IMG/VR virus record: IMGVR_UViG_3300028845_000223
Span: 2,547-66,546 of that record
From: a virus
DNA: 64,000 nucleotides
Direction: 5' to 3' (one strand)
Notes under the pieces: model-generated
The model's input: the letters and a program-made list of their open reading frames with translations, nothing else
What the model was told of the DNA's origin: nothing
The model's database searches: none
Shown: in pieces, positions 4,030-63,776 of the stretch
Numbering within the stretch: the stretch's first letter is position 1
Layout: each line of letters starts with the position of its first letter
Position numbers and translations under genes: made by a program

Positions 4030-4692
4030 CTACTCAACTCTCACAGTTTTAGAAATAGAAAGAATGGTACAAGTGTCAAAAGAATTTTCGGTCAAAACAC
4101 TTGTTACCCCGCTACAGGTTTGCATAATAATTCTTGTTGGGGCAGAACCACAAGAAACAGAAAAAGAAAACACAAGGTCTTGAGGACCACTATCCGCGAT
4201 ACCCTCAATGTTTTGATGAATAACAGAAAATCTATTCAAAAGAACATAAGAACAGCCAGAAGGAAAAATTCTACCAAAATTATCTCCAGCTGTCGCATAG
4301 TTTCTAATTCTGTTTCCTATTATCCTCATCGTAGGATTAATTCCTGCATCGGTTGAAATCTCCACGGAATTAAATTCAATTACTCCCTCATATCCTCCAT
4401 CAGAAGTTCGATACAAAACATTTGTTTCTCTTGCCGCGGCATCTGCCCTCGAAGAATCCGACCCCGAATCGGAAGAATCCGAAACAGAAGCATCTGATTC
4501 CATAACAGAAGAGTCTTCTTCAATAACCGAAGAATCTGCATCTTCTGAAACCATTTGAGAATCAGGAAATTGCCGTGAATCTACGGAGGCATCAGAAGAT
4601 TCGCGATCGGGCATTTCCATTGTTGGATTGCCGCAGGCAATCAAACCAAAAACCGCGATCAGCGAGAGATACTTGTTTTGAGAGATTTTCAT
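4030..4692 (-). CDS. Lipoprotein with Asp/Ser-rich linker
   Basis: MKISQNKYLSLIAVFGLIAC lipobox, then DAS/DSS low-complexity linker and a Cys-containing C-terminal domain. Confidence 0.65.
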   Translation of the reverse strand: MKISQNKYLSLIAVFGLIACGNPTMEMPDRESSDASVDSRQFPDSQMVSEDADSSVIEEDSSVMESDASVSDSSDSGSDSSRADAAARETNVLYRTSDGGYEGVIEFNSVEISTDAGINPTMRIIGNRIRNYATAGDNFGRIFPSGCSYVLLNRFSVIHQNIEGIADSGPQDLVFSFSVSCGSAPTRIIMQTCSGVTSVLTENSFDTCTILSISKTVRVE

Positions 4693-4783
4693 TTTGTGAG
4701 ACCTTTCTGTTGTGTACACCTCGACATTAACCACCGCAGCGGAGGCGTCAAGCGACATTATGAAACACAATTGGTCTCAAATA

Positions 4784-7700
4784 TTACTCGTCCTCTTCAT
4801 CATCTTCTTCGTCGTCCTCATCGTCAATATCAATATCATCTTCATCTTCGTCTAAATCTTCGTCAGACTCTTCAATTTCTCCATCAAGAATTTCAACCTC
4901 TAAATCAAGAGAATCTTCTGCAATTCGTAACAATTCTAAATTTGACATATTTTGAACGGTTTCTAATGCTTCTTCTTCTGATTCAGCAGAAACTTCTATG
5001 ACTATTTCTTGTTGAAGAAATAAATTTACAGGCACGCCATATGTTTTTATATTCATGTTGTTTTTGTTTGCTCCTTTTTTCAGACAATCTGAAACATTAC
5101 ATTTTTTGGATGCTCTGAATTATATACATTCCTAGTTTCATCTTGGTAATGTGCAACCGTTTTCGACATTTCCTTAAGAAATTCTTGGTGAAGATAGATT
5201 TCATTCATCAAATATTGTGAAAGTTTTACCTTAACTGAAAGGTTCGAATAATTGTTTCCAAGTTGTTTTACTGTAAGAAAGATAGCTGCCCCAATAGTGC
5301 CACATGCAGAAGAATTGCACCTAAGATTTTTATCTTTTGTCACAGAGACGAAAAGGTCTCTTTCTTCTAAAGGAAAAAGAGACGAGACAGGGACAACCTG
5401 AAAAGAAAAAGACTTTTGATAACCGTTGCCCAAAGACATTTCAATTTCAAACGAGAGACTGTCCATTTTTATTTTCCTTTCGCGGTTTAGTTGGGGTGAT
5501 GCACAGGTAGGGTATCCACATCCCCAACCTCTGTAAAGAGAGAATCCCAGGGCAATATACTTTGAAACATGACTTGTCCGTGGGTTTAAACTCAAACAGC
5601 GTTTGCCACGCAGAATTTCAAACAAATTCGGGTTTCAAACACAAAAACATCAAACTAAAACTGAAATTAAATTAAATGCTTATTGCCTCGTTGATTTCTC
5701 CTGATGCTTCTTTAATAGTGTATGAGACACACATACGAATTTGTTTTATATCCTTCTTTTTACAAATACTTTGTTTAAAAGTATTTGAAGGAAATAAATC
5801 ATTTATCGGTAAGTCTGTTTTTTCAGGAATGAAAAGATCTCCAAATCTTAACTTTTCTTCTAGTTCATCTCTTATCTTTTGAAGACTATTCAAAAAATAA
5901 TTTTGATAAAGAAATACATTTTCAAACACACACGAATCTATTTTCTCAAAATTAACGTCACTAAAAAACTCCACATATCGGCTGTTAATTGCTTCAGCAT
6001 ACATTTCTTTGACTTGTGGAAGAAGACAAAAGATAACCAAATCTTGGTTTAAGATATCATCTATATTTTCTTCAATATCATCTGGTTCAAATTCAAAATA
6101 ACCTAATTTATTTTTGATACTCCAATGAGCAAATTTTGAATCATATTCTTCACTATAACTTTTGCTATAGCTAAAGACTAATTCTTTTGGATTGCTTATG
6201 ATAGAATCACAAATCTCCAAAAATAAAATGTGAAGTTGTTCAAGTAGCAATTCTTGCGAGTCATACAAAAAAATTTTAGATTCTCCAAAACAGTTAAGAT
6301 TTAATGCCCAAAGTTTAGACATTGTGATTTGACCAATTAAGCCGCGACAACCCTAACAGGTTGTTTGTCTTCAAAATGCCCAGGAGGAGGAAAAGTATTA
6401 TAACTAACTTCTATGTTTTCAAAGAAAGGATTCTTTACTCTAAAAGAGTTTCTTTCAGTCCTATTGAACTGAAAACCAGATTCTTTTAGTTCTTTTTCTA
6501 ACCGCTCCATCAATGTGTTTAAAACAATTCCAGACATAGGCATAGGTATGTCTATCGAACAGTTGAGTTCTATTTCAGAAATTTTTGTTGCATTAACACT
6601 TTCAAGAAATTCTCGGTTAATTTTTTCATTCCAAGTTTTTATATTCTTTTGAAACAATTCCTCAATCAATTTCATTTTATCTTTTAATATAGTTTCTTTT
6701 GTGGTTGAAAGCTGTTCTAGGGTTATTAGTTTCATGTTTTGTTTTCCTTTTCTTTTTTATGAATTCAGTAACATAATATTTTCAACAATTTTTTCGCGAA
6801 GTGTTTCAAGGACTTCCGAAGTTTTTTGACCTTCTTCTAGGTTTGAAAGAAAAGTATAATCATATTCCGAATAGCGATTGCGTAATGCTGGCTTTAATAG
6901 AATGGAAAGGCGTGCTTGAGCTGGCTTGATTTTTATTCTTTCTTTAACTGAATATGCTTTTAATTTCCAAAGATTGTGTTTTGAAGAAAGCTCTTCATAG
7001 TATTTTTGATACTCTTTGAGAAAATTTTCTGTTGTTTTGAGCACCCAATTATGGATTAGAAGAACTGCCAAAAAAAGGCAAAAGAAAACTAAGGCAAGCA
7101 AACTTTTCACAGACGCAAAAACAGCAGAAACGGCAATTAATAATATTAGTAACACTACCCAAAAATTAGATTTATGTGATACCACAAAAAAAGGAACAAA
7201 TTTCTTTCTGTTTTCGTAGTGGTTTTCATAAAATTCCCTTTCGGTAGTAGGTGTTTTAGGTTCTTTTCCTGCTTCATCTAATTTCGGATAAGAGTTTCGA
7301 TAATCAGCTTCAAACGTTTTTACATTTCCAATTGAATCAATGTCTTTTAAATCAATAAATCGATAAGAATCTGTAATTCTAGTTCGAGAAAGTTTTACTT
7401 CTCCATATCCGTTTAACTTAAACACCTGAATTTCAGGTATTGTTTCTTCATTCATCGTTGGTGTCCTTTACCTTTATGATCTGTTTTGCTCGGAGAATAT
7501 CTCTTTGGAGTGTTAAGAGATATTCAAGGTCGGTTGATCTAATCTCCTGATCGGAAAAATTCCCGAACCAAAACTTTAATCTATATGGAAACATATTCCA
7601 GTCTGCAACTTTGTTATTATATTCTTCTTGTGCTAATGCGTTTTTTCCATGAAAATAAACTTCTTGTTTTTCATAATAAATTTCATAAAAACGGCAAGCC

Positions 7701-11045: not shown

Positions 11046-11120
11046 TGGTAGTCTGCCGCGGATTTGAACCACGAACTGCTCCCTTATCAAGAGAGAACTC
11101 TACCCTTGAGTTAGCAGACT
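11046..11120 (-). tRNA. trnI: tRNA-Ile(GAU)
   Basis: AGTCTGC/GCAGACT acceptor, CTCTC-TTGATAA-GGGAG, encoded CCA. Confidence 0.9.
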
Positions 11121-11214
11121 AATTTTTATTTCTCGTTTTGGTAGAAGTTTGTTGCTTCTACCGCGGCGATCTACACAGTATAATCACCCGACCGTCTGTG
11201 TCAACTGCCAAGGG

Positions 11215-12294
11215 TCATATGTTTGTTTTTTTAACATTTAAACGCCTTAATTCTTCTTTCAACCAAGAAATAGTGGATATTATCCATTCTTTTCTAAAAA
11301 TTTGCAGTTGCCATTCTCTATTGCAAGGAAGAACTAAAGACTGTTCAAAATTTGAAAGTGATTTCTCATAATTTCCAAGATTGTGATAAGAAAAACCTAA
11401 CATCTCTCTATATTGGTAACAGTCCTGTTCTTTTTTAAGAGAAAGATACTTTTCTAGAAAGTCAATACATTCTTTAAAATTATTTTTTTGTATCATTTCT
11501 AGTGAAGCTTTAAAAGCTGCGTGTTCTGGTAGTGTACTTTTATCACATTTAAAAGCCAATTCTTTGAAAATCGGAACATATTCATTATATCTATATTTCT
11601 TTTCTGGGTGACATAACATTTCATCTGCGAGATAATATCTGCATCGATCAATTAACTCTGGATCAGTTTCAAACCTTAACCAGTTTTTTAAAATTGAAAA
11701 ATTTCTTTCGTTGAAATTTCTTGCTCCATTTGAACGATGAATAACTTTAGATTTTGCAACCAGTTTTGTAAAACTATCTCTTCCATCTTTATGATCCAAA
11801 AATTCATGAACAGGAGTTCTCCAATACCATCCAATTTTATTTTTAACAATTCTTTCTCTAAAGAAGTTTTCGCCTTGAATGCAAACAGTTCTGTCTTCGT
11901 TCCAGCCATACATATATTGCATTGATAAATAATTTCTTTTTCCAGCAGCTTTCAAGGTTTCAAAATCTTTTCGAAACCAATAAATATCATCAATTTGATC
12001 ATCTGTATCCAACCACATAACCCAAGGTTGGGTTGCATAAGAAAAAGATTCTTCTCTCGGTGCCGCGAAAGACATTAGTCTTCCATCCAAATCAAGATAT
12101 TTCTTTCCTGTTGCATACACTTTTTCTGTATATTTTTTAGCAACAGCAACAGAATCATCTGTTGACCCTGTATCAACAACAACAATCTCTTTTACAACAG
12201 GAGACATTTGTCCAAGAATAAAATCTAAATTTTGCGCGTCATTTCTGTTGATCATACACAAAGACAAGTCTAGTTTTTCAGTTTCTTCAGACAT
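11215..12294 (-). CDS. Glycosyltransferase family 2 with C-terminal TPR-like helices
   Basis: LSLCMI..N, IVVVDTGSTD, SFAAPR, W..WLDTDD, W...VHE motifs. Confidence 0.85.
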   Translation of the reverse strand: MSEETEKLDLSLCMINRNDAQNLDFILGQMSPVVKEIVVVDTGSTDDSVAVAKKYTEKVYATGKKYLDLDGRLMSFAAPREESFSYATQPWVMWLDTDDQIDDIYWFRKDFETLKAAGKRNYLSMQYMYGWNEDRTVCIQGENFFRERIVKNKIGWYWRTPVHEFLDHKDGRDSFTKLVAKSKVIHRSNGARNFNERNFSILKNWLRFETDPELIDRCRYYLADEMLCHPEKKYRYNEYVPIFKELAFKCDKSTLPEHAAFKASLEMIQKNNFKECIDFLEKYLSLKKEQDCYQYREMLGFSYHNLGNYEKSLSNFEQSLVLPCNREWQLQIFRKEWIISTISWLKEELRRLNVKKTNI

Positions 12295-12310: not shown

Positions 12311-15300
12311 TTAAAGGTTATATAACTTCTTAATACAATCAACAAGTTCTTGATCGGGGTGGTCTGATTGTATTAGACCAATTTTAGATTGTTTTGTTTC
12401 GTGTTCTCTAAAATACCACTCGATTTCAAATTCTTCATCTTGATATATGTCAAACTGTAAAAGTTTGTTATTGGCAAAATAACTTAATCGAATTGATGGA
12501 TCAACACTATTTGAAAGAACTTCTTCAAATGGTTCTGCGCTTGGGTTGAACTGTCTTACAATACTCTCAACTTGTTCAATTTTTATTAGTATTTTTTTTG
12601 TTATTTCCATGACACATTTTTTCTTTTTTTATATATTAAAAATCGCGGGATTCTTGCAGTTCTTCAAACTCCAATCAATCCAAAACTCCAACCAAATCAA
12701 TCTAGCTAAAACATCATCAAATTTTGTGTCCATAAATCCTGGTACAGCGTTTGGATGCCTCGCGATCCAATTTGTTTTAGTTTCTTGAATCTTGGATAAG
12801 TGTTCTGGTTTTAAGATAAAACAACCTGGGTGTGCGCTCATAAGACCACATTTTTCATCAAAAAAGAAATCATTGAGTTCTGCTTTTTTAACAAAATCAT
12901 GCCATCCACCATAACTTGGGTGTCTGCCGTTTTTATTACTACTTAATGGATCGCCTGTAAAACTTGGAGCTACAGGCAAACATTTTTCGTGAACCCGAGG
13001 AATATACATTCCAGAGTATTTCTCTTTTTCAAGAACTGCTTCACCGATGTAGATACTGTATCCCATGTTTTTTATCTTTCTATAGCTGTTGAGTTCTTTT
13101 TTTGCCCACAATAAAAACACACCAATTCCGCATATTGATTGTTTACCACTTTTGATAATTCATAATCATGTCTTCCAAACTTACAGAGCTGTTTACTCAC
13201 TACAGGAATAGAACATGGATTAAACCTGTAAAAATTAATTGTTAAAACAATTTCTTCTATTTTTGATTTAAGTTTATCAATCATTCTATTCCAAGATATG
13301 TTTCATATGAATGAATTATTCTACAGTTGCTTCCAAAACCTTTGCAAGTTTCATGTCCAAGCGAACTGGAACATTTCCTGCTTCTGTGCCCACCAATAGC
13401 GGTAATGTTTTCAAACGGATCTAAACTTTCGCAATAAGAATTTATAATTTCAACTGTATGATTAGTTGAAAGATTCAAGTCTTTTTTACAAACCTGGTCC
13501 TGAAAAAGTGATATGTCTTTTACTTTATCCATTTTATTTTCTCTTTCTTACCACGCGAAACGAATATTCTTTTTTATAAGTTTTGGACTGATTTGTTCTT
13601 TTAATTCATCCGTCAAAATTTCATCTGACATAAGAGTCACTCCAGTTCTAAACAATTTTTTTGAAAGTGTGAAATCGTCCAATAAACTATTAACAAATGC
13701 ACTGTCGGCAAAATACGGCGCAGGACGACGGCATCTATAGCAATAACTTGTCGAAACAGGAATACAGAAACAAGTTAACTGTGCTTTCCTCATTTTGTAA
13801 TCATCGAGGTCTTCTGATCTCTTTTTTTGTATTTCGGCTAACCGACACAAAAGTCCAACGAAATTCTTTTCTTGCATTTCATCAAGATTTGGTATTAAAT
13901 GCCTGCAATCCTTTTCTCTTGCCCCAATCATATCCCAGCGTAACCAAAATCCATAATAACTTATTAGTGAGTTTCTTGAAATCCAATCCCACGCATAAAT
14001 ATTTTTATATGTTTTTACTTTATTTGTGGTCTCGCAAAATTCACCTTCAACAAGATAAACACTTGGAATAAAACCTTGTTTTACGGTAGAAAGCGCGGCG
14101 CCAGTAAAGTGTTTGTAAAACACCTTGTCTGAATTTTCTGTAATAAATCCATAAAACTGTTTCATTGTCTTATCCTATTGTTGTTTTTTGATTGATTTTA
14201 TTATTTCATACTCTTCTCTGGTTTCAAACCTAAGACGAGTACCTACTTCAGAAACCAATCCAAGCTCAACATATTTGTTAAAACCTTTATTACCAATATA
14301 TGATATAATCTTCTCCACAGACCAAGGTTTATCATTTACTCCTTTTTCAGAAGCCCAGTGAGTCATTCCAGAAGTTGTATGAACACAGATTTCTGAAATG
14401 TAGTTTCCAGAAACTCCTCTACCAAAATGAGCAGAACACCAACAATTTGGATTAGTCTTTAAACAAGAAAGATTCTTTTCGGCTTTATTTGAAATTATAC
14501 GTCTAAAATCAATTGGGCTCCAATATAAAACAACCTTGTTCACAGTGTGATTAAAACAATCTACCCCATTGAAAACATCTCCAGGTTTCAAATTCATCAT
14601 CCAAACAAAAATCAAAATCAATATAGTCTCCACCACCAATTCCAATGTCAGATTGAACCTCTCCCTCGAAACTATCATTTGTTTTTAAAAATTTAACCAC
14701 ACACACAAGTCAGATGTTTTTCCGTTAACATGGACAAGTCTTTCAGACTGGCACCTCATACACTTTTTATTCATTTAGATTCTCCTTTAGACGGTTGCCC
14801 CAACCATTCTTCAATCTTGGTTATAAGCTCGTCAAACCCACTGTAAAAAGCTTGTGTTGGATTCTGACTTGAAGAGAATGTGATTGACTCTGTTGCGGTT
14901 TTAGACGCGGCAACAAGCATGTAATCTGCCCCAACTTTGTTAAGTTTAAAATCATAAGAAATTCCATTCTCTAGAGAGAGTTCTCCAGTATATTTCAAAC
15001 GAACATTCTCATCTCCAACAAAATAAGAATCGTAATAAGGATCGTTAATCAGGTTATACAATTCTTGTAAAAATCCTTGGTCTGGATATTCCTCTTCTTT
15101 GTGAGCTTCAAACTCTTCTCGAATTCTTTTCCAAAATTTTTGCTGCTCTTTGGATAAAATCTTTAACTCGCTAATAAATGTTTCTATATGATTTCCATCG
15201 ACAGTATAAGATATTTCAGACGATTCGTTTCCTTGAACTAATAATGAATCTATGTTTTGAATGACTTCGCACTGAATATCGGAAATTTTCTTCACAGAAA

Positions 15301-18767: not shown

Positions 18768-19786
18768 TTAATGCCTAACAAACTTAAACCTTGTTTCTTT
18801 TAGGAGTTCTTCCTTTGGAGAAAATTCATGAATTTCAATGGAGTCAAGGCTAACTCCCCAATGTTTCCATTCTGGGCTAACTTCAACCTCTTCTGCCTTT
18901 TTGGTTGCAAGCTCTCTAGTTTCGTGTACTGATTCTAATTTAATATTTCCTTTAGTAGAGCTAAAGGAGTCATATTCTGTAAAGAATACTATTACTGCAT
19001 ATACATTTTCAGCTTCATAAATTTCTTTTGAAACTTCCACATCACCATATCCATCCTTAACAAAACTCTGTTTTCTCAAATGTTGAATATTATGAGTTAA
19101 AATTCTTGGTTTTCTTTCATAAGAACTACCCTTGCAACGTTCGCCGCCAGTTGAAGTAGTTTCACAAACCAAAGTCATGTAATATGAAAGTTCTTTTGAG
19201 TCACTTGTTTCTTTGTGCCGCTGCATTGAATTCCTTTTCCCATCTTTTCTTGTTTTCTTCTTCTAGTTTAATTGATTCTTCTGAACGAATCAATTTGCCA
19301 TTATCAAAATAATGATACCTAAAATCAGATATACAATGCGAGGCTGCGGTGGTAATATAGCCAATTTCTTCTTTAGAATAAGTTTTAGAAAGAAGGTCTC
19401 TATCAATTGCATGATTAAAACACTTTATCCCCTCCCAGGAAGCATGTTTGACAGGAAACCCATATGAAGCGAGTAGGTCTCTCAGTTTTTGTTTTTCCTC
19501 TTTTGGAAGACCAAAAACATCATATGGGATTAATTTAATATCAAGCTTTTCTTTTGGGAGAGAATCCATTTTTTTACTCCTTATTCTTTTTGCTGATTTT
19601 AGAGACGCCTGTTATGACTGCCCCGAACGCGGCATCCACAATCGAAGAAACAATGTTTCTTTCAATTCTCTTTACCGCTGTCTTCACAACCTTCTCCGCA
19701 AGCGAAGCAGGAATTGATTTTTTAGCTTTTGGTTTTGCCATTTTATTTCTTTTCTCTTTTTGGTTTATTGTTTTAGAGGATAGCAC
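18768..19786 (-). other. Hypothetical ORFs 18768-19226, 19201-19569, 19574-19747
   Basis: Abutting co-oriented ORFs. Confidence 0.65.
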
Positions 19787-21703: not shown

Positions 21704-24700
21704 GGATAAAAGTTATCTTCAACGCATTCGTTTACTTTAAGCCTTGTCAAGAATACTTTTCCTAAATCATAAGAATATCGATTGTCCCCTGTTGTGATTC
21801 TTTTAAAGAATTCTTGATAAGCCTTTAAAGAATGATCAAGTTTATTTAACTGCCAAAGATGTTTAGAAGCAGTTTCTATCTCCTTTTGCATTTCTAAATT
21901 TATAGAATTATTTTCTTCTTCAGAAAGAGTATTTGCGAATCCACTTTCTCCTCGAAGATTTTTTTCGTTGTTTTCAATACAGTTTTCAAAATATTTTTGG
22001 GTGTATTCTTTTAAATAATCAAGGGCGAATAACTCGGAAGAAAAAACACCAAGAAAGGTAATGCTATAATAAGCAGCGGGGCAAACATGAAGGGCATAAA
22101 AATCAGATTCCATTAGCTTTTGTACTTTCCAGACACGTTACTTGTGTTTTTCAACACTTCATTAATTCTATGTCGAACTATAGCATAGTCTTCCATTCCA
22201 CCACTTATAGTTTTAATAAACTCTCTTAAAGAGTCTTGAGTGGGAGAAAGTGTTTTCAGTTTTTCTAAATCTCTTTTTATAGAATCAATAGAAAGATATG
22301 ATAATTCTGATTCAAATTCAGTTGAGTTATTATTTGTAATTTGTGCTTCATGTTCCAGAATTGCCTTTTCAATTTTTCTTTGATAGAAATCTTTAAGGTA
22401 ATCCAAAACAAACAACTCAGATGAAAATGTTCCTATAAAAGAAATTGTTTTATTGGCGTTAAGCATAAAAAGTGAATAAAGTTCAGACTCCATGATTATT
22501 TCCTTTCATTTTTCTTTTTGGTCTAAAATTTTATCAACGTGTTCTTCGTGTGCTTTTAATGTTTTATCAATAAAATTTTTAAACTCTTCGAGCTGCCTAA
22601 CACCTAGAATAATATCTTCGTAATGCCCGTATTTTTGAGGAGTCCCAAACAAGATATATTTTATTCCATACCAAAGTCTTTTATGAAATGGAAGTTTGTT
22701 TAAACTAACAGAAAGTATAACTTGTAGAGGAAGAACTTCAGATTCATAAAAATCTAAAACGACTAAATGATTAAGGTCGCCGCATCTACACGTTAGATAT
22801 GCTTTTTCATCTTCCATGTCTTGAAAAGCTTTTTCTTTCATTTTTTTATCATTCCTCTTCTTCAATGTCTTCTTCGTCAATGTCTTTTTTAAAATATTCT
22901 TGAAGGGACCTTGCTATTCTCGAAGAATGGCAGTAATACCAAGTATTGGTTTCTTGATCTAGCCAGTATTGGTATTCTTCCCCAATACTTTTATATTCGT
23001 CAAGAGATGAATATGTTGCAGCTTCAACATCTTGTTCGCCGCGATCAACATAATATACAGAACTTTCAGGAGATTCTCCTAGAGAAGACATATCCCCTTT
23101 CAACATAAGGGATTCAACTTTTTCAACTGAATTATAAAACTCCAAAAGTTTACTTCCGACTTCATCTGGATAGCCGTCCCAATGACAATAAACGGCTTTT
23201 ACTGTGCCGTCTTTATAAAGAACTCCGATTCTTGATCTTGTTGCCATGTTTTTTCTCTTTCTTTTTTCTGATTACTTCAATTTCTGATTTGTCTTCGCAA
23301 TATATACTTTCATATGGTGGCGGTGCTCGAAAACCTCCGCACGAACCATCCCCACACATACACATAACACCGCGACCTAAATGACAAGGGCAGTCACAAG
23401 GTTTAGGACCATCAAAACTTTTTGTATTTGCTGTTTCCACATACGAGTGAGATTGTTTTTCTGAACAATCAACAGATTGAATTTTTTTCATAACCTCAAC
23501 CATATGAAATATTCTGCTTATGTCAACAAGCCGCAATAATTTTACCAATTACTTTTTTGAAAACAGGAACACCTTTGTAATTGATTTCCTTGAAAGGAAA
23601 AGATTCCATGTCTTTTTTGGTTTCGAAATAAACAACAAACCCAAGATCCCCTTCGGAACATTCGGATTTACTATCTAAATCAACTCCAATCCCGCAACCA
23701 TTTGAATATTCAGACACATTATATTCTTTCATGAATTCTTCATGAAGTTCTTTTAACTTCTCTTTGTTTTGCATTGTTTTTTCTGCCTCTCAAAAACCTT
23801 CGTTTATATAAATTTCTTTAACACTAAAACTAAACCATCCAACTTGGCTAACAGCTGTCTGAAAATCAGAAATCGTGCTAATTTTGGTTATATCATCAAA
23901 AATTGCCAACTTAGATTCTTTATCTTTTTGATCCAAACGGTTTGCAAATTTTTTGTATTCTTCAATAAGAGCTTCAAGAGCATGAGACTCAGAAGAAAAA
24001 ATCCTTCTTCGCTCTTCGCTTAATGGAAATCGATCTCCAGACAAATAAATTTCATCAAGTGTTACAAGAAAAGCATGTTCTCTTGAAGTTTCGGTTGATT
24101 TATGAAGAGGACACCAGTGGGGTGTTTGTATCTTGTCCCGCCATTCAACAGCTCCAGCAATCTTTTTATCTTCTGCTGCAATACAGATCCAGTCAACCAT
24201 TCTATCCCATCCATCAGAACTAAAAGGATTTGTTTCTACTTTATTTGGACAAGAAGAACATTCGATCTTTAATACAGGAAGTTTTTTAGATGCCGAAGCC
24301 ATTATGTTTGTTCCTTCTGTTTTGGAGTAAGAGGACATTTTCTCTAGTGTAAGACCTCCGCAGGTCGAATCAACCCAAGATCGGATTTGTTTATTCTTTT
24401 GGTTTTTCTTGAGACCTTATTAATGCAAACAATGCATCATACTCAAGTTTTTGTTTGTAAGCAGGATTTTTATTCATTTCAATTCTTTCCTCAAAGTGTT
24501 TGCATCCAACTTTAGCGGCAGCCTCCATAAACTTTTCTCTTACAATCAACTCTTTCCTAAGAACATATCCTTTTGCTGTAATTGGATCTCTAACAGATTC
24601 ATTCTTTTCCCCTCTAGCCTCTAAAATTTCACCAAGCTCTTTATATGTCACCTCAACACAAATCTTGCACCTTATGCAAGCATACCTAATTCCATCTTTT

Positions 24701-42431: not shown

Positions 42432-43153
42432 TTTCTTTGTTTGCCTTTCTTGCGATTTTTATTGGATTTAACTGCTACCATTCCAAATGGTAGCTTCGGA
42501 GCTTCTTTTATTTTTTTAAATTTATCAAACTCGGCAATTACAACTTTTTCAAGAGGGTTTAAAAACTCTGTTGAGTAAAACCAAACATTTAAATCATTTG
42601 CAATTTCTTTAGTTTTTGGACCAAGCTTTTCAAGCTCATAGATCGAAAGTGGATCTATTACATGTTTTAAACGTAAGTTTTTGTAATTTTCTGGTGGTTT
42701 AACTCTACGATAACAGCCAACATCCTTTAAAACATATTTCAAAATTATTTCTTTAATTTTTTCTAGTTGTGTATAATTTGTAAAAAGAATTTCAAATTCA
42801 TGACAAATATTAACAAAAGCATTTTGCTGGTTATGTTCATTAACATCAAAATCCTCTTCAACAATATCAAGACTAACGGATAGTTTATTTACTGCTTTTT
42901 CAATTATCTCTACTAGTTCTGTAGGGTATCCAATAATATTGTCAGACAAAGAATAATATTCAATGGAAATATAAGGGAAATAGGGATCTATCGCCCTTGC
43001 TAGAGGCTCAGCCTTTGCCGCCTCTTCTATTTTCTTAAGTTCTTCTTTAATTTTCTTTTCTAAAGATTCTTGTGTTTTTGCCGCGATTTCTTTGCCATTT
43101 GGCAACATAGCAGTATATGTTTTTACTATCGTTTCTTTTGTGTTTATTTGCAT
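42428..43153 (-). CDS. Hypothetical protein
   Basis: 241-aa ORF in the same operon. Confidence 0.65.
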   Translation of the reverse strand: MQINTKETIVKTYTAMLPNGKEIAAKTQESLEKKIKEELKKIEEAAKAEPLARAIDPYFPYISIEYYSLSDNIIGYPTELVEIIEKAVNKLSVSLDIVEEDFDVNEHNQQNAFVNICHEFEILFTNYTQLEKIKEIILKYVLKDVGCYRRVKPPENYKNLRLKHVIDPLSIYELEKLGPKTKEIANDLNVWFYSTEFLNPLEKVVIAEFDKFKKIKEAPKLPFGMVAVKSNKNRKKGKQRK

Positions 43154-45454: not shown

Positions 45455-47818
45455 TTAGTTAATAAACTGTGGTACTTTTTCAGATTTTAAATCTATCACT
45501 TCTTCATATGCAGAAGATAATTCTTTTTTGGAATTGTCCACACCTTCTAGTTGAATTCTAACACGGTCTTCAAGATTTGATAATTTTGAAAGCAAGTCAA
45601 TGTTTTTAACAACATCTTGAACTAGATCAATAACCTCAAGAGTTAGGTCTGTTTCAGATTGAATTCTAAACTCAGATGCAATTTCACTTAGTAGGTTTTG
45701 ATACTTCTCGTCAAATTTAGTTTTAAGGAGGTCTATAACAACACCAGAAGCAAACTTAACAATGATTTTTCCTTTTGAAGAAGCTATGAATTCTTTTAGT
45801 TTTTCAATATTTTTAGAGTTGCTCGTTTTTAATGCGTCGAAAAGGAGTTGCTGAGAAACTTGTGATATTTTTTCTGTCGCCATTCTTTTTGCAACTTCTT
45901 TGGCGTCATTTTTTGCAACCGTTAAAACTTTTGCGGCAACAGCGGTTGTTCCAGAAGAAGGTGTTTTGAACTTTTCCAGAACTTTGCTGAAATAGTCATT
46001 GGCATGTTCTACATGTGAACCATATTCATAGCAATAAGAATCTACAGATTGACCAAGCCCGCCATCAACAGCATATAAACGAGAGCGTGTTGTAAAATCG
46101 TAGTAGTATGGTCCCTTTTTACAAGATGCCATATCATTTTCAAACTTTGAAACACTCTGTAATTTTTTACCGATATAAATAAGATTTAAAACAGTTTTTC
46201 CGTTTTCTATAAATGTAACTGTCTGAACATTGTTCAAATCTGTATGAGCAATTCCTGTTCCGCCACTTTCTAATACCTCCATAGCATGAGGAAATGTTTT
46301 TAAACCTTTAATCTTTTCGAGAACTTTTTCGTAAGAGAATTCATCTTCATATTCTTCTAAAATAATTTCTCTCTCTTTTTTAACAAAAGTTTCCCAAGCT
46401 TCTTTTGAAGAAAAGAAAATGCCATCAACAGCATATATATTCCCGTTTATCGAATGTTCAATTGCGGGTCCTAATCTTGAAGATGGAAGTCCTTCCTTGT
46501 TATATTTTGAAATGGCATGGAGCACTTTTTCTTTTGAAAATTCTTTTGTTTTAAAATTATACTTCCTTGGCTCAAAGGTATATGTTTCATTTTTAACATC
46601 CAGGTGAAGAACTTCACCTTGTCCGCCAAGTGTGGAAACTTTTTCAATTACTTCTTTAGTGTCTTTATAGTTAGTTTTTATAAACTCTTCCGTTATTACC
46701 TTACGATATTTTTCAAAACTCTTGTAGTTTTCAAATTCATTTTTTGTAAGCCTCACTCCATTATAAGCATAATTTAAAGGATTAATTGAATTAATTGCGG
46801 GACCATCTTCTCGATGAAGTTCACCATTTTTGAAATGGCATTCAACTCCTTGAATATTACAGATTCCCGTAAACCCATCGGGGATTTCTTCAAAAGAATT
46901 GTAATATTCAAGATTGGAAACTTTTACTTTAACCTCTACTGGTTGAGATTTTTTTGTGTCCAAGGGTTTTTTTTCTTTAAAGTCTTTTAGCCTTTTTCTT
47001 GCAGCAAGAACTTTTTCTTCGGTTTTTTTATATTTTGGTAGAGCTTTCTTAAGCGCAGCCAAAGATTCATATTCTTGGTTTTCTAAAAAAAACTTTTGAG
47101 TTCCATCCGTAAATTCTACAGCTGGTCCATCTTCTCGGTGATAAGAACCATTATTTTTATAATAAGCATATTTTAAATAACTATTTGTTTCTGGCAGATA
47201 AGTAACCTTGCCGCAAAAATCAGACTCAGCTCTTTTATCAATAATTTTGTCGTAGTTTTTTTCGGTTGCTGTTAACTCAACAAAAGGTTTTCGCTCTTTC
47301 GAAAAAAAGATTTTATCATAAAAGTGTTCAATTTCGTGAATATATGTTTCCTCCACATTTAAATTATAACTTGCATCAAAACATGATTTTACTTTGTCAT
47401 TTTTATCAAATGATATTTCGGATACGTTGATGTTAAAGTCTAGACAGTTTTCTTTATTTTCAACAAGATCATCCCAGTTCTCGTAATCCAAAAATTCGAC
47501 AACAGCTTTTTTGTTTTTCAATGCCTTACCTTGTTCGATAAGACTCAAAATATTTTTTTTGAATTTTTTATTAAATGAAACTGGCGAATTTTCAGTGTTG
47601 CCTAATTTGAAATAAACATACGAAACTTGATCCTTTTCTGGAACCTTTATCTTTTTCCAGCCTGTTGCTTTAACAAGTAATTCAGGATTCTCAAACATGT
47701 CAATTGCTTCCCCTTCATTTGAAGGGTCGATGTTTGCCGCGTCCAGGAACGCAGCTTTTATGGAATCAATTTTATTTTTTCCAGCTTCACTTGGCATTTT
47801 TCTGTTCTCACTTTTCAA
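45455..47818 (-). CDS. 787-aa mosaic protein with dispersed HREDGPA modules
   Basis: YHREDGPAVE, LHREDGPAI, SRLGPAIE modules; helical C-terminus. Confidence 0.7.
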   Translation of the reverse strand: MKSENRKMPSEAGKNKIDSIKAAFLDAANIDPSNEGEAIDMFENPELLVKATGWKKIKVPEKDQVSYVYFKLGNTENSPVSFNKKFKKNILSLIEQGKALKNKKAVVEFLDYENWDDLVENKENCLDFNINVSEISFDKNDKVKSCFDASYNLNVEETYIHEIEHFYDKIFFSKERKPFVELTATEKNYDKIIDKRAESDFCGKVTYLPETNSYLKYAYYKNNGSYHREDGPAVEFTDGTQKFFLENQEYESLAALKKALPKYKKTEEKVLAARKRLKDFKEKKPLDTKKSQPVEVKVKVSNLEYYNSFEEIPDGFTGICNIQGVECHFKNGELHREDGPAINSINPLNYAYNGVRLTKNEFENYKSFEKYRKVITEEFIKTNYKDTKEVIEKVSTLGGQGEVLHLDVKNETYTFEPRKYNFKTKEFSKEKVLHAISKYNKEGLPSSRLGPAIEHSINGNIYAVDGIFFSSKEAWETFVKKEREIILEEYEDEFSYEKVLEKIKGLKTFPHAMEVLESGGTGIAHTDLNNVQTVTFIENGKTVLNLIYIGKKLQSVSKFENDMASCKKGPYYYDFTTRSRLYAVDGGLGQSVDSYCYEYGSHVEHANDYFSKVLEKFKTPSSGTTAVAAKVLTVAKNDAKEVAKRMATEKISQVSQQLLFDALKTSNSKNIEKLKEFIASSKGKIIVKFASGVVIDLLKTKFDEKYQNLLSEIASEFRIQSETDLTLEVIDLVQDVVKNIDLLSKLSNLEDRVRIQLEGVDNSKKELSSAYEEVIDLKSEKVPQFIN

Positions 47819-49121: not shown

Positions 49122-50205
49122 CTAGTTTTCTTTTATTTCTTCTTTATTGTTTAACAAAAGTTTCCAGTCTGCTGATCTTTCTACTGTTTTAATTTGGTTA
49201 ATGATTTCTTTCGAAGATTTTTCTGCTGTTATCCAAACGGGTAGCTCTTGCTTTTTCGGTTCTCTTTTAACCGAAAGGAAAACTTCTTTGTTTGTTTCGA
49301 TTTGAGCTATTGAGAAAATTTTATTAACTCCTTCACTTGGAGAAGTTGGGCCAATTCCTTTTACTGTTGACTGCATGTCTTTAACAAAATAATTTTTTCC
49401 ATCTGAACCTTCGAATATAATATCTGTGCCGCCGAATCTGCCGCGGCCAACTAAAGATATCTTTTTGGTTAACTTGATTTCTTTTGGCTCTCCAGCGAAT
49501 TTAACAGAAAAACTAGATTTAGACTTTAGTAACTTTAAAACTTCTTTTGCTGTTCTTATCGTTATACTCATGTTTTCTTTCTATTCCACCTTTTCTTTTT
49601 AGTTTGACTTTTCATTAAGTCTTGAATTTATTTCCTTCAAGGCTTGTCTCATTGTTCCGTGTTTAGCAATAAACAAATTAAGTACCACTTCTGGTGTTAG
49701 ATTTGTTATTTCTGTTTCTCCAAAAAGATAATCAACAACTATTTTTGGAGAAGATAGTGTGTGTTCAGAACACAGTTTCAGAAAATCATATTTCCCATCT
49801 TTTTGTCTTTCGACAATTAAAATAAAACCATTTGACCTCATATCGATTCTTGTAAATTTTCCTGCATTTAATTTTTTATCTATTGTGTTATTGAATTTAA
49901 TATGCTCTTTTGTTTTTTTTGCGGTTTCTTTTTCCGTTCCAGTGGATGTTAAGTCAAGCATAAAACTAGTTTTTGTATCTTGCATGTATATTTTCCTTGT
50001 TGATGTTGCTAGAGGCAGTTTGACTTTCGAGCGTTTCGACGTGTTTGATTGCAATATAAGCTAAAATAGAAAATCCAGCGATTCCAAATAAAATCAAACT
50101 CCATATTCCAATCACGAAATATCTTAGCCAAATTTTGAATCTTTCGATTATGTTGTCTGTTAAACCTTCTGTTTCCATTGCTTCATCCTTTTTTAGTGAA
50201 GGCAA
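49122..50205 (-). other. Hypothetical ORFs 47833-48132, 49122-49571, 49599-49985, 49966-50205
   Basis: Co-oriented ORFs at the start of the minus-strand block. Confidence 0.6.
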
Positions 50206-51562: not shown

Positions 51563-52561
51563 TATGTCAAGCCTAGAACTCCACGATCTAGAATTTGTTT
51601 TGGTTCCGCAATCAAACTCCAAAACCAATAATGGCATTGAACAATTTAATGTACTTTTGGAAAATAAATTAATTTGTTCGACAATTGAATTGGATGGTAA
51701 ATGGATCTTGGTTGATACCTTAACGGGGAGAAGTGAAAAGTTTGACTTGCAAGAAAGTCTAGAGAATCGAATTCTCGAACTCGCAAACTCCTCAAAGAAA
51801 GGAAATCAAAAAAAATGCTTGACACATCTTCTCTCATAAAGGTTGATCCAAGGGGACTAAACACAGAAAGTTATGATTTAGACTTAATCACAAGTAAAAC
51901 GTTTTCAAGTGTCCTTTCTGGTCATGCCGCCTCGCTCAAACTTCAAATTGATATTGACCATAAACAAAATCATGTTGCTTTTGTGGTTGAAGGAAAACCA
52001 ATTTTGGGTGAACATATGTTAGGTAAAGAAGTTGTTGCCGCGACTTTTATTCCAACAGCAAATGCTTTGGAGCATTGGAAACTAATCGTTGAAAGACTTA
52101 TCCACGCTTGGGATTTGATAGCGGCTCCAATTCAAACAAAAGAAGTTCTCAAAGAGAAACTCTGAAAAAGAAAGAACAAACACATGGAAACAAAGCTGTC
52201 AAAAACTCTGATCGCTTTTCTGAATAAATTCCAGAAAGAAATCGAAAAAGGTCTCCATGTGTACGGATACAAAGCAATACACTTATCAACAAAAGACCTG
52301 AAGAATTTCCACGATATTCTTGAAGAGATTAAAAACTTTTTTTCGGAGAAAGAAATAAGGTGTGAGTTTACACCTTCTGATAATTTCATTTCATTTTGCT
52401 GGGTAGTGCCTGCGAATATTGCTCGTAAAGATGCCTTTGAAAACACACAAGGAACTAATGTTACCGAAAAACTTTCATATTTTAAAAAATATGAGACGCA
52501 CGAACGACCAAACAAACAAATTCCTCGGGATGTGTGCCTTGTGCGTTTTGGAATAGGATGA
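51563..52561 (+). other. Hypothetical ORFs 51563-51839, 51815-52165, 52184-52561
   Basis: Abutting plus-strand ORFs. Confidence 0.6.
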
Positions 52562-53024: not shown

Positions 53025-53939
53025 ATGAACCTAAAATCTCAAAAAGAGCTACACGTTGAATTTCTTCCTTTTCAAAAACTTATAGACTATATTAAAATCG
53101 GCGATGCTCTTGGAATGGGATTTGAGTATACTTCAGATAAATTTATAAAAGAAAATCTTTGGAAAGAAAATACTTTGCCAAAATTTATTCAACATCCATA
53201 TTGGGCAACCCTTACCCCAGGAATGTATACAGACGATTCTCAAATGAGTATTGCACTTATTAAGTTAATGTTAGAAGAAGAAACAACTGAATGGTTTGAT
53301 GATCGAGTTGTCGGAAGATACTTTCTTTCTGAATTTAAATCAAGCCCTAGACAGGGATATTCGACTGGTTTGTATAAAGTTTTGTCTACTTCAAAAACAA
53401 CAAATGAATTTTTGGAACAGATTGCCGCGTTTGGAAAGTCTTCAAAAAATGGCGGCTGTATGAGAGCTGTCCCAATTGGTTTATTACCTGATTTGGAAAT
53501 GGTAAAAAAATTTGTAAGATTCCAAGCGGAAACAACCCATTCAGGAACAGGCGTCGATGCAGCAGAAATGATTGCTGTTGCGGCATTTGGATTGAAATAT
53601 AAACTAACAGAAAAAGATAACAAAGTTGATGTTTATGGTTGGGTGAAAAATAACACTTCTTATTTTCCAGAAATTATCAAAGAACTTAAAAGAGTTGAAG
53701 GCTCAAATAATCTCGGTTTATTAACTTCAATTTCAGTGCTAAAATTATTTAGTGAATTTGATTTGAGGTTAGGATTACATGAACTGATAAGAAGGTGTAT
53801 TCTTTTAGGTGGAGACACAGATACGGTTGCCGCGATTGCGGCGGGGTTATATGGATGTTGGATACTTTCAAAAAGTAAAAAACAAAGAAGGGTTTCTTAT
53901 ATAAAAGAAATTAAACCATTGATAAGGTTTGTAAAATGA
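53025..53939 (+). CDS. ADP-ribosylglycohydrolase (DraG/ARH family)
   Basis: IGDALG, YTDDSQM, NGGCMR, ETTH, GGDTDTVAAIA. Confidence 0.9.
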   Translation: MNLKSQKELHVEFLPFQKLIDYIKIGDALGMGFEYTSDKFIKENLWKENTLPKFIQHPYWATLTPGMYTDDSQMSIALIKLMLEEETTEWFDDRVVGRYFLSEFKSSPRQGYSTGLYKVLSTSKTTNEFLEQIAAFGKSSKNGGCMRAVPIGLLPDLEMVKKFVRFQAETTHSGTGVDAAEMIAVAAFGLKYKLTEKDNKVDVYGWVKNNTSYFPEIIKELKRVEGSNNLGLLTSISVLKLFSEFDLRLGLHELIRRCILLGGDTDTVAAIAAGLYGCWILSKSKKQRRVSYIKEIKPLIRFVK

Positions 53940-56804: not shown

Positions 56805-57182
56805 ATGACTCACTAGGTAAAAAATAAACTATATGTCGTAACAAGAGAAGACCTTGGACTTCAATATCAAATTCCACAAGTGGCACACGCTGTGGCAGAA
56901 TTCGCACTAAGAAATAAAATAAAGTTTGAGGAATGGAATTCTGGTGGTTTGGGATCTTTGGTAGTTGTTGCCGCGAAAAACGAAGAACAACTATTTCAAT
57001 TTAAAGCAAAACTAGAAAAAGAAAATCAAATTTATTATGGATTCTATGAACCAGATATTGGTTATAGTTTGACTGCTTTAGCAATAGAACCATCGGATAA
57101 AGTAAAGAAACTTTGTTCGGGAATGCCTTTAGCGGGCAAACTTTCAAAAGAAACACTAAACCTAAAATTAATTTTGACATAG
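56805..57182 (+). CDS. Pth2-like peptidyl-tRNA hydrolase with in-frame TAG at codon 4
   Basis: AAGGA SD, then ATG ACT CAC TAG GTA...; KLYVVTREDL..QYQIPQVAHA, LVVV...E, F.EPDIG..LTALA..P. Confidence 0.75.
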
Positions 57183-57770: not shown

Positions 57771-57776
57771 TCTCGC

Positions 57777-57848: not shown

Positions 57849-57877
57849 CAAACAAAAACATAAAAAGGAAAACAAGA

Positions 57878-58792
57878 ATGCAAACAAGACTCTTCTGTGG
57901 TTTGGCGATTGCTGTGTTGGCTGCCGCGTGTGAAACAGTATCTCCTGGGGAAGTTGCCGTTTTAGTTGATACTGGAACAGTTAAAGGCGTATATCCTCCA
58001 GGACTTTATTACGATGGCCCAATGATGGAATTTCACAAACTTTCAACGAGAGCTCAATCATTTGATATGATTGGTGCCCCAACTCAAAATCAAAACCATG
58101 AACGTTCTGGTGAAGGTACTGTTACTGTTTTAACTCGGGACCAATTAAGTGTTGGTCTCGATTGCACGGTTCAATTTCACTTAAACAGCGACCACGCCTT
58201 ACCTGTGTTTATTAAGTTTGGCGAAAACTATGCACAAACAGTTGTTCACACTCCTGTCAGAGCTGCGGTAAGGGATAGCGCAGGTAGGTTTAACGCTCTC
58301 GATCTTTCAAACCGAAGAGAAGAGTTACAACAAACCCTCGAATTAGAAATTCGAAATAAGATTCATACACTGTTGTCTCAGCAAAGAGTTTCAACAAATG
58401 CGATCATCTTGGATTCTGTTTTGATTCGAAATATTGATCTACCAAATTCTCTCGATGAAAGTATTGTGGCATTGCAGCGAGAAAGAATGCAAACGCAACA
58501 GAGACAACAAGCTGCCTTAACCGCGCAGCAAGATGCTGTGCGGCAAATGGCAGACATTCGAGGACAATCAGAACGAAATATTTTAGCAGCGGAAACTGCC
58601 GCTAGAACAAGACGAATCGAATCAGAATCTATTGCCGCGGCAAACAGAACAATTGCCGCTTCACTTACTCCAGAACTTTTGCGTCTTCGAGCAATCGAGG
58701 CACAAAAAGAAGTCTTGGGAAGTAATCAGACTCGAACGGTATTTATGCCTCCAAATATGTCACTTTTCAACCTTGGAAATATCCAACAATAA
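57878..58792 (+). CDS. SPFH/prohibitin (band 7) family lipoprotein
   Basis: LAAAC lipobox, V.PGEVAV, T.DQLSV.LD..VQF, C-terminal coiled coil. Confidence 0.85.
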   Translation: MQTRLFCGLAIAVLAAACETVSPGEVAVLVDTGTVKGVYPPGLYYDGPMMEFHKLSTRAQSFDMIGAPTQNQNHERSGEGTVTVLTRDQLSVGLDCTVQFHLNSDHALPVFIKFGENYAQTVVHTPVRAAVRDSAGRFNALDLSNRREELQQTLELEIRNKIHTLLSQQRVSTNAIILDSVLIRNIDLPNSLDESIVALQRERMQTQQRQQAALTAQQDAVRQMADIRGQSERNILAAETAARTRRIESESIAAANRTIAASLTPELLRLRAIEAQKEVLGSNQTRTVFMPPNMSLFNLGNIQQ

Positions 58793-59210: not shown

Positions 59211-59240
59211 TCGAAAATTACTCGCGGAGCAAACCAAAAA

Positions 59241-59272: not shown

Positions 59273-59290
59273 GACTTTAAGGAGCAGAAA

Positions 59291-59797: not shown

Positions 59798-59813
59798 AAA
59801 TAGAAGTTTTAAA

Positions 59814-60644: not shown

Positions 60645-61313
60645 ATGACAAATGCGATGTTGGTGTTAAAAACAAATAATTCAAAACTTGGTGGTGTTGC
60701 CGCGACTTATAGTTCAATTGATTCTTCTTGCCCGACTAGTTGCGCTTTAAAAGATAATGGATGTTATGCTCAACTTGGTTTTGTTGGAATTCATACATCA
60801 AAACTAAATAAAAAGAAATCAACTCCAAGAGAAGTTGCAAGAGAAGAAGCAAAACAAATTAAACAAGCTATTAAAGAAGAAAAGAATACAAAACCATTGC
60901 GGTTGCACGTTGCAGGAGATTGCCGCACAAACGAAGCAGCAGCCATATTAGCCGAGGCAACAAAAGAATGGGGCTATCCAGTATGGACTTATACACACGC
61001 CTGGAAAGATGTTTCTCGTTCTAGTTGGGGCAATAAGGTTTCTGTTCTTGCCTCGGTTGACAACATAAAAGAAATAAAATCGGCAAGAAGAAAAGGTTAT
61101 GCTCCTGCTATCATTGTTGATAAATTTTTATCAAAAAAAGCATATGAGTTTAATGGATTTAAATTAATTCCTTGTCCAAATCAAACTCATGAAAATATAA
61201 CTTGTGAAAAGTGTAAACTTTGTTGGAACGATAAAAAACTTAAAACTCTAAATGCTGTTATTGGATTCGAAGCTCATGGTGCAAAAAGAAAATCTCTGCC
61301 AGTGATAAAATGA
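60645..61313 (+). CDS. Phage Cys-rich protein (Gp88-like, possible Fe-S)
   Basis: SCPTSC.L...GCYA, RLHVAGD, WTYTH, CP...C..C.LC. Confidence 0.6.
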   Translation: MTNAMLVLKTNNSKLGGVAATYSSIDSSCPTSCALKDNGCYAQLGFVGIHTSKLNKKKSTPREVAREEAKQIKQAIKEEKNTKPLRLHVAGDCRTNEAAAILAEATKEWGYPVWTYTHAWKDVSRSSWGNKVSVLASVDNIKEIKSARRKGYAPAIIVDKFLSKKAYEFNGFKLIPCPNQTHENITCEKCKLCWNDKKLKTLNAVIGFEAHGAKRKSLPVIK

Positions 61314-63301: not shown

Positions 63302-63305
63302 CATC

Positions 63306-63776
63306 ATGACAAACCTAAATGTAGTAGTAAGAAAACGTGGTAGACCACCTGGAAGTAAAAACAAGAAAACCGCGGGCGATGTGAAACCTAGTCCCGCGGT
63401 TATTGCCTCGGCGGTCGACTCAGGAATAATTCCAAAAAAGCGAGGGAGACCACCGAAGAATCCCCAAGCAGCCGCGGCACCAAAACCAGAATTTATCCCA
63501 CAAGAGATTCCAGTTTTAGAATCTAAATTGGTTTCGATTATAAATAAACCAAAAGAAGAGACCAAGGTTCAAGAACCGAAAAGTTATAAACAGTTTGAAG
63601 TTGGAGATAGAGTTAAAAAAATAACAACAGGAGATGTTGGATATGTTAAAGTACACAAGCCAGGTACCAGGTATGTTTACGTTAATTGGGGTGGGGATTA
63701 TATGGATTTTGTTGCGGCTGACTTACTAGAACTAGTAAACATACCAGCTTCAAAAAGGCAAAAAAAGAATGAGTGA
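63306..63776 (+). CDS. AT-hook DNA-binding protein with C-terminal KOW/SH3-like domain
   Basis: KRGRPPGSKNK and KRGRPPKNP; FEVGDRVK...VYVNW. Confidence 0.7.
   Translation: MTNLNVVVRKRGRPPGSKNKKTAGDVKPSPAVIASAVDSGIIPKKRGRPPKNPQAAAAPKPEFIPQEIPVLESKLVSIINKPKEETKVQEPKSYKQFEVGDRVKKITTGDVGYVKVHKPGTRYVYVNWGGDYMDFVAADLLELVNIPASKRQKKNE

Follow-up and report, generated by a model that had tools for sequence, protein, structure and literature searches.

A lineage-specific GCCGCG word in a T4-like phage and its tentative reading as a Chi-like polar signal

The 64,000-nucleotide stretch of viral DNA analysed here (the window) covers bases 2547–66546 of the 203,914-bp virus record IMGVR_UViG_3300028845_000223 (the 204-kb record) and carries many copies of a short GC-rich word, TTGCCGCG(A), with the core GCCGCG/TGCCGC. 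The feature is real, strong and lineage-specific, exceeds what composition and codon usage predict, and in its longer forms lies mostly on one strand irrespective of the direction in which the genes are read. A directional function is a plausible reading with partial support, and the known signals that it most resembles are the Chi sequences at which helicase-nucleases change their activity.

The record has a GC content of 32% and encodes rIIA/rIIB, a T4-type terminase, a portal, a major head protein, two tail-sheath proteins and an SbcC/gp46-like nuclease; the phage also carries a RecA/UvsX-like gene and a tRNA-Ala(tgc) with the anticodon UGC, and 17 tRNA genes lie in the window. Completeness was put at ~56% by a CheckV-type estimate, and proteins identical to those of the phage are found on a 390,884-bp contig; the record is a fragment of an uncultured T4-like phage of roughly 391 kb. 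A further contig of the same phage (G001, 100% identity) begins at record base 89,506 and extends 57.7 kb beyond the record; the two were joined into a supercontig of 261,640 bp (262 kb), with about a third of the phage genome lying outside. For comparison we used a relative spanning the same part of the genome as G001 (G002, ~72% nucleotide identity), a relative at ~48% protein identity that is syntenic with window 37.4–49.6 kb (L030), three relatives whose S8 peptidases are 85, 83 and 62% identical (L161, L162 and L163, respectively) and four strains with nucleotide identities of 96–99% (L031, L152, L153 and L154). Megablast and tblastn searches of a phage collection with window sequences returned no match, and the relatives of the terminase in that collection were distant and T4-like, with none closer.

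Excess of the word and its independence from reading frame

An exact search of the window returned 28 plus-strand GCCGCG sites, at the same coordinates that an earlier sequence-only reading had collected by eye, and no others on that strand. The five palindromic sites noted in that reading, GCCGCGGC at 4433, 41662, 49440, 58634 and 63471, were recovered as well. Its estimate of about six one-directional copies on the minus strand was close for that class, which has seven members, and left out the five palindrome halves that bring the minus strand to 12 sites. The form TTGCCGCG accounts for 15 of the 28 plus-strand sites. The sites are as follows, with their state in the strains where it was compared:

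4433..4440, plus, TTGCCGCGGC, palindromic GCCGCGGC, inside a minus-strand gene
6341..6346, plus, AAGCCGCGAC
11055..11060, plus, CTGCCGCGGA, non-coding site inside a tRNA-Ile(gat) gene
12062..12067, plus, GTGCCGCGAA
20728..20733, plus, TAGCCGCGAA
21281..21286, plus, TTGCCGCGAC, plus-strand gene within the minus-strand block, GCC GCG, Ala-Ala
23038..23043, plus, TCGCCGCGAT, antisense CGC GGC, Arg-Gly frame
28493..28498, plus, CTGCCGCGAA
29358..29363, plus, TTGCCGCGTT
32227..32232, plus, TTGCCGCGAT
32318..32323, plus, TTGCCGCGGA
35169..35174, plus, TTGCCGCGAT, retained in L152, L153 and L154
37876..37881, plus, TTGCCGCGAT, GCCACG in L153
41662..41669, plus, CAGCCGCGGC, palindromic, retained in all strains
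42391..42396, plus, ATGCCGCGAC, retained in all strains
43080..43085, plus, TTGCCGCGAT, GCCGTG in L153
45423..45428, plus, TAGCCGCGGT, intergenic, retained in all strains
47736..47741, plus, TTGCCGCGTC, GCTGCG in L031 and L152
48521..48526, plus, ACGCCGCGAC, TATGCAGCAAC in L031 through three clustered synonymous differences that leave Val-Ala-Ala unchanged
49440..49447, plus, CTGCCGCGGC, palindromic
52037..52042, plus, TTGCCGCGAC, plus-strand gene, GTT GCC GCG ACT
53424..53429, plus, TTGCCGCGTT, ADP-ribosylglycohydrolase-like gene
53829..53834, plus, TTGCCGCGAT, same ADP-ribosylglycohydrolase-like gene as the 53424 site
56970..56975, plus, TTGCCGCGAA
57923..57928, plus, CTGCCGCGTG
58634..58641, plus, TTGCCGCGGC, palindromic
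60699..60704, plus, TTGCCGCGAC
63471..63478, plus, CAGCCGCGGC, palindromic
11162..11167, minus, one-directional GCCGCG
14094..14099, minus, one-directional GCCGCG
14906..14911, minus, one-directional GCCGCG, TTGCCGCGTC
19628..19633, minus, one-directional GCCGCG
28038..28043, minus, one-directional GCCGCG, TTGCCGCGAT, intergenic
43451..43456, minus, one-directional GCCGCG, missing from L152, L153 and L154
52861..52866, minus, one-directional GCCGCG, TTGCCGCGCA

Dinucleotide-preserving shuffles of the window (n = 100) gave an expectation of 1.86 sites for both strands together, with six as the largest value. For a codon-aware null, synonymous codons were permuted within each gene, leaving the protein and the codon usage of the gene unchanged. 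The plus strand then has 28 sites observed versus 6.8 expected (largest of 300 shuffles, 14) and the minus strand 12 versus 4.5 (largest, 11), so the excess holds against the kind of null model on which the sequence-only reading had made it depend. Across the 204-kb record, GCCGCG occurs 46:26 times (plus:minus) with 3.2 expected per strand from a first-order Markov model, TGCCGCG 32:17 times with 1.2 expected and TTGCCGCG 22:10 times with 0.5 expected, and these are the most over-represented 6-, 7- and 8-mer, respectively. Enrichment of one-mismatch variants is far weaker, and the reversed control word occurs 0+1 times; the palindrome CCGCGG is present 24 times versus 3.3, and GCCGCGGC in five copies. 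A Chi sequence is expected to be far commoner than composition and codon usage predict, and the phage word is.

The word encodes Ala-Ala at 47 of 65 coding sites, either as GCC-GCG on the coding strand or as nnC-GCG-GCn when antisense. Among the 16 Ala-Ala codon pairs, only GCC-GCG (25 versus 5.0 in the codon-preserving shuffle) and GCG-GCA (46 versus 14.8) are inflated, and GCG-GCC, GCG-GCG and GCC-GCC show no inflation. All six classes of frame and orientation are enriched 3–10-fold over the codon-aware null (25 versus 6.5, 22 versus 6.3, 10 versus 2.2, 4 versus 0.4, 3 versus 0.95 and 1 versus 0.1); the class with 10 versus 2.2 is Arg-Gly (CGC-GGC), and out-of-frame readings are likewise enriched. 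Seven sites are non-coding, and one site lies within a tRNA gene. A codon-pair (dicodon) bias would raise the counts in one coding-strand frame alone, a pattern that the phage word does not show. Most sites sit on synonymously chosen Ala-Ala codon pairs; the word is a signal at the level of the DNA for which Ala-Ala is the cheapest carrier, rather than a codon-pair effect.

Identity among the flanks of 83 sites stays below 55%, and because the flanks are unrelated, the sites must have originated independently; copying of sites by paralogy was considered and rejected, no such copies being found. Positions are uniform along genes and spacings follow an exponential distribution with a mean of 2.2 kb. 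We found no association with gene starts or ends, the sites being intragenic and not at promoters, and neither a fixed spacing nor an operator-like pairing of sites.

Orientation, turnover and lineage specificity

Within the window the preferred strand is independent of gene orientation. The bias is present on both sides of the coding-strand switch at 50.4 kb, as had been claimed from the sequence alone, with plus:minus counts of 17:6 to the left and 6:1 to the right after exclusion of palindromes. The claimed ratio of 28 to 6 fared less well: the codon-aware null by itself places ~55–60% of sites on the plus strand, and because ~60% are expected there, the bias of the bare hexamer is not significant and its polarity is weaker than the raw counts imply. 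It is the longer words that differ significantly from this null:

GCCGCG, 0–84 kb, 35:15, P = 0.19
TGCCGC, 0–84 kb, 55:22, P = 0.027
TGCCGCGA, 0–84 kb, 15:2, P = 0.006
TGCCGCGA, whole 262 kb, 21:7, P = 0.0009
TTGCCGCGA, whole 262 kb, 16:4, P = 0.0004

Polarity thus grows with word length, from GCCGC (151:97) through TGCCGC (96:51) and TTGCCGCG (25:10) to TGCCGCGA and then TTGCCGCGA. Relative to the codon-aware null, plus copies of the 8–9-mers are enriched 8–10-fold and minus copies 1.7–2.3-fold, the minus orientation being undepleted. TGCCGC sites that lie outside GCCGCG follow the same polarity pattern. When 935 hexamer pairs at 0–84 kb were ranked in an unbiased way by the polarity common to plus- and minus-strand genes, CCGCGA, TGCCGC, TTGCCG and GCCGCG took ranks 2–5, all of them sub-words of TTGCCGCGA. 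Between 14 and 81 kb, TGCCGCGA occurs 15 times on the plus strand (seven times in minus-strand genes, seven in plus-strand genes and once between genes) versus once on the minus strand. Counted relative to transcription, TGCCGCGA is antisense 14 times and sense 11 times and so obeys no transcription rule.

A flip of polarity at an origin or terminus was one of the checks suggested by the sequence-only reading. A reversal does occur, at 84–118 kb (TGCCGC 3:10), and would mark such a point if the word were linked to replication; at 118–262 kb the plus strand is preferred weakly and non-significantly (38:19). A recent inversion fails to explain it, because G002 has the same gene order. No TGCCGCGA lies between 112 and 197 kb, and large stretches are nearly free of sites. 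The GC skew at four-fold sites has a small strand-specific part, which keeps the same sign in all blocks with no flip at 84–118 kb.

The excess is common to the strains at 96–99% identity and is not shared by G002, L030 or L161–L163. Over 18 kb, each of three strains has 7–9 plus sites and no more than one one-directional minus copy, yet half of the sites vary from strain to strain; individual sites thus come and go without loss of density or polarity. In the part shared with G002, TGCCGCG counts are 2:4 in the relative versus 10:7 in this phage, and two of 29 orthologous sites are retained there, the same Ala-Ala usually being written in AT-richer codons. Over the homologous 12 kb, L030 has one GCCGCG versus 11 here. 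The 14 kb around the S8 peptidase hold 11 copies in this phage, none in L161, two in L162 and none in L163, and L162 lacks the word at a GC content equal to that of this phage. Across these genomes the excess is specific to one species, in whose AT-rich genome the word has built up recently.

The S8 subtilase gene itself (L018:10704-12428, minus strand; supercontig 234.6–236.3 kb) has 45% GC amid 31% GC, and the 8.6 kb around it form the densest GCCGCG cluster, with 11 sites.

Where strains differ at a site, the change is mostly a CpG transition that converts GCCGCG to or from GCTGCG, GCCGTG, GCCACG or GCCGCA. The frequency of CpG transitions exceeds that of other G/C transitions by a factor of only ~1.7, and hypermutability of CpG through 5-methylcytosine was rejected on that account. 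The T-derivative is undepleted (TGCTGCG 3 and 6 versus 2.7 and 2.6; GCT-GCG pairs 14 versus 11.3), and neither the 262 kb nor G002 yielded a methyltransferase of the C5, N4/N6 or Dam type (PF00145, PF01555 and PF02086). A target of methylation and very-short-patch (VSP) repair is expected to come with a cognate methyltransferase and with depletion of the deamination product, and neither was found in the DNA analysed; in view of the 1.7-fold transition ratio and the undepleted T-derivatives, a methylation-and-repair bias is poorly supported.

Other features of the phage genome

At least 10 paralogous small genes, 65–77% identical, form two inverted arrays:

genome 62.3–66.7 kb (window ~59.8–64.0 kb), plus, paralog array 1
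genome 82.9–92.8 kb, minus, paralog array 2, with one further copy at 233.5 kb

The G001 and G002 contigs begin inside the second array. A physical genome end near 89 kb, where both contigs start, was considered and rejected, because the array of paralogous genes explains the assembly breaks.

In the window, ARAGORN calls a tRNA with the anticodon CUA at 57777–57849 (plus strand), labelled tRNA-Pyl and thus of the amber-suppressor type, which stands apart from the other 16 tRNA genes, all on the minus strand at 8.9–33.6 kb. A 316-aa protein encoded next to rIIA (window 41481–42431, minus strand) has a precomputed Pfam Serpin match in near-identical strain contigs, which is unusual in a phage early region. 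The radical-SAM gene has 494 aa in the window (36139–37623) and in L153 and is called at 271 aa in L152 and L154. Strain-specific insertions at L152:1-616 and L153:18250-19542 contain IS605-type OrfB/TnpB (Cas12f-like) genes.

Beyond the window, a single ORF of 884 aa (L005:16241-18895, plus strand; genome 139240–141894) resembles P-loop ATPases in its N-terminal third (terminase, DnaC or primase-like PHROGs) and matches the full GroEL chaperonin profile over residues 428–877 (E = 1.6e-135); the ORF is either an uncommon fusion or the result of joining reading frames in error. A 610-aa ORF with GIY-YIG and HNH homing-endonuclease matches (L005:2241-4073, minus strand; genome 125240–127072) directly adjoins the major head protein gene. 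The profile match of the RecA/UvsX-like gene (G001:162403-164623, minus strand) falls into two pieces ~1.4 kb apart, and the gene for DNA polymerase III alpha/PHP (L018:19185-19997) contains an intein splicing domain; these recombination and replication genes look like carriers of inteins or introns.

Candidate readers of the word

Taken together, the data point to a word that this phage species would have accumulated under selection, with selection rather than mutation bias probably driving the excess. It may be read mainly in one orientation by an enzyme travelling along DNA, most likely a RecBCD/AddAB-type helicase-nuclease of the host on which the word would act as a Chi-like signal: at correctly oriented copies, one every ~2 kb, the nuclease would stop degrading phage DNA and turn to recombination and repair, as with the Chi-rich phages LLS and MD8. 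The strand read would be TTGCCGCGA if the enzyme enters from the right and TCGCGGCAA if it enters from the left. We rank a Chi-like polar signal first because the word is frame-blind, species-specific, mostly in one orientation and spaced at ~2 kb, and because phages offer a precedent (PMC12315714; see also PMC3784561); it is the best of the readings considered, and we advance it tentatively.

Phage LLS of E. coli has 23 Chi sites, distributed 20:3 with one per 1.86 kb, and Pseudomonas phage MD8 has 32 sites, distributed 32:0; both are lambdoids of 40–60 kb with cos ends and no Rec module, and their word is the known Chi of the host (PMC12315714). There, as in the phage studied here, a short GC-rich word is the top oligomer, with roughly one copy per 2 kb, most copies in the same orientation and an uneven concentration along the genome. 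Unlike LLS and MD8, this phage is T4-like, has ~391 kb and possesses RecA/UvsX-like and SbcC-like genes, and the polarity of its word is weaker (~70–80%) and reversed in one block. The bacterial Chi sequences of RecBCD/AddAB (E. coli GCTGGTGG, B. subtilis AGCGG, S. aureus GAAGCGG, L. lactis GCGCGTG) are also short, GC-rich, strand-skewed and among the most over-represented words of a genome, and the complement of the phage word, TCGCGGCAA, contains GCGG, as do the Chi sequences of Bacillus and Staphylococcus; the phage word differs from them in sequence and is enriched in the phage rather than in a host chromosome.

The sequence-only reading had named Chi and the FtsK-orienting polar sequences (KOPS) side by side, and of these the Chi-like directional signal fits best. 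KOPS and the SpoIIIE recognition sequences (SRS) are polar 8-mers as well, guiding a DNA translocase and ignoring gene orientation; they are G-rich (GGGNAGGG, GAGAAGGG) and point towards dif on the chromosome. A cognate FtsK/SpoIIIE-type translocase gene was not found in the 262 kb of this phage: a search of phage genes only, in G000, G001 and G002, gave no match to PF01580, with control genomes matched. In phage T7 the EcoP15I (Type III) sites CAGCAG lie in a single orientation, the other having been lost to escape cleavage. Here too an asymmetric word holds one orientation across a phage genome, but escape of this kind covers the polarity and not the 8–10-fold excess, and in the present phage the minus orientation persists.

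Several observations weigh against a Chi-like signal. Genes for AddA/RecB- or UvrD-type helicases were not found in the 262 kb, and the phage has RecA/UvsX-like and SbcC/gp46-like recombination genes of its own, whereas the published Chi-rich phages are those without recombination modules (PMC12315714). The T4-like terminase suggests non-unique ends, and if packaging is headful and the ends are random, a single fixed polarity is hard to explain by entry from an end. Polarity amounts to ~70–80% and is reversed at 84–118 kb; the polarity of the bare hexamer at 0–84 kb does not differ significantly from the codon-aware null, and the extensions TGCCGCGA and TTGCCGCGA were picked after the flanks had been seen, which makes the P values of the long words somewhat optimistic. 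In G002, a close relative, no word of its own is dominant, and the word of this phage matches none of the Chi sequences compared, namely the bacterial set above and GCTGGCGC, the Chi given in PMC12315714. Finally, none of 836 bacterial genomes contains the word at a Chi-like density, although the true host may lie outside this sample.

The sample comprised 301 Bacillota, 124 Bdellovibrionota, 401 Pseudomonadota and 10 others, with centre genomes supplied by a 16S pattern; the best ratios of word to control were ~3–5 for the 8-mer, and in five AT-rich bacterial genomes TGCCGCG was no commoner than the control word. A host search with the GroEL-like domain gave no relatives among the genome contigs searched. 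The sole hint at a host comes from the S8 peptidase, whose closest cellular homologues (45–55% identity) are in Myxococcota or 'Deltaproteobacteria' assemblies. Several of these homologues lie on contigs of 350–600 kb that may be huge phages.

Among the other explanations, the counts could reflect an orientation-independent target of a protein that binds or modifies double-stranded DNA, be it a host or phage methyltransferase, a hypermodification enzyme or a nucleoid or condensation protein, with the strand bias secondary or due to chance. Both orientations indeed exceed the codon-aware null (GCCGCG 3.5-fold on plus and 2.4-fold on minus; TGCCGC 3.5- and 2.3-fold), the palindromes CCGCGG and GCCGCGGC are frequent and the hexamer polarity is non-significant. 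We nevertheless consider such a target rather unlikely, as the full 8–9-mer is clearly enriched in the plus orientation alone, no methyltransferase of the types sought turned up in the 262 kb or in G002, and the sites are intragenic and uniform, neither paired nor regularly spaced nor at promoters. Less likely again is a mark of replication direction, for example a long site of a phage primase or another lagging-strand or fork-linked signal placed about once per Okazaki-sized interval, in which case the polarity switches at ~84 and 118 kb would be origins or termini. It would agree with the mean plus-site spacing of 2.2 kb, with polarity that is independent of transcription, with the reversal of a single block, as expected around an origin or terminus, with a strand-specific skew of constant sign, and with co-evolution of a species-specific word and a phage enzyme. 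The skew, however, does not flip where the word does, the spacing is random and irregular, some stretches are near-empty (such as that from 112 to 197 kb for TGCCGCGA), and the phage primases characterised so far, to our knowledge, recognise trinucleotides, for which no enrichment is needed.

A mutation or repair bias, such as VSP-type correction tied to cytosine methylation, would require no selected function and would suit the preponderance of CpG transitions among strains and the quick rise of the excess in one lineage; it is improbable given the modest transition ratio, the intact T-derivatives and the failure to find a C5-methyltransferase gene in the 262 kb, leaves the polarity unexplained, and known VSP effects on word counts are modest rather than 4–40-fold. 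Slightly lower still we place a strand-specific nick site of a phage nickase, comparable to the single-strand interruptions of T5. The word is asymmetric, lies mainly on one strand at kilobase spacing and occurs in a genome with homing and HNH-type endonuclease genes, and the nick sites of T5 are also short, GC-rich, kilobases apart on one strand and contain GCGC. No specific nickase was identified; we know of no phage nick sites, those of T5 included, that are strongly over-represented words. The least probable explanation, and one that is largely refuted, is a by-product of translation or composition through an Ala-Ala codon-pair preference, the phage tRNA-Ala(UGC) or clustering of rare GC-rich codons. 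In its favour are the predominance of Ala-Ala at coding sites, the presence of that tRNA gene and the ~60% of window sites that the codon-aware null assigns to the plus strand, yet antisense copies are as enriched as sense copies, non-Ala frames are enriched 3–10-fold, other GC-rich Ala pairs are not enriched, some sites are non-coding, and relatives of equal GC that encode the same proteins are without the word.

Chi, KOPS and similar signals first came to light as polar, over-represented words, and words of this kind reveal the DNA-tracking machines that act on a genome. The rise of the phage word falls within a single species, relatives with 83–85% identical proteins being without it, and comparing strains with relatives therefore shows a genome-wide signal being assembled by synonymous changes. 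It is conceivable, if somewhat doubtful, that TTGCCGCGA/TCGCGGCAA is a new polar control sequence, serving as Chi in a host lineage yet to be recognised or as the word of a new phage-specific tracking enzyme. The phage species would have assembled it de novo through dozens of independent substitutions, most of them synonymous, despite having a recombinase of its own. Even as a mere target of binding or modification, the word would still be the strongest sequence signal of this genome and a handle for biochemistry. If it is the Chi of the host, it would serve as a sequence tag by which the host of this widespread huge phage could be traced, and would extend the use of Chi beyond small lambdoid phages without recombinases; if a phage enzyme reads it, giant phages would possess a directional signal of a new kind. 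As a new polar control sequence, it would show evolution in progress, with a giant phage of the virulent type acquiring a directional signal across its genome.

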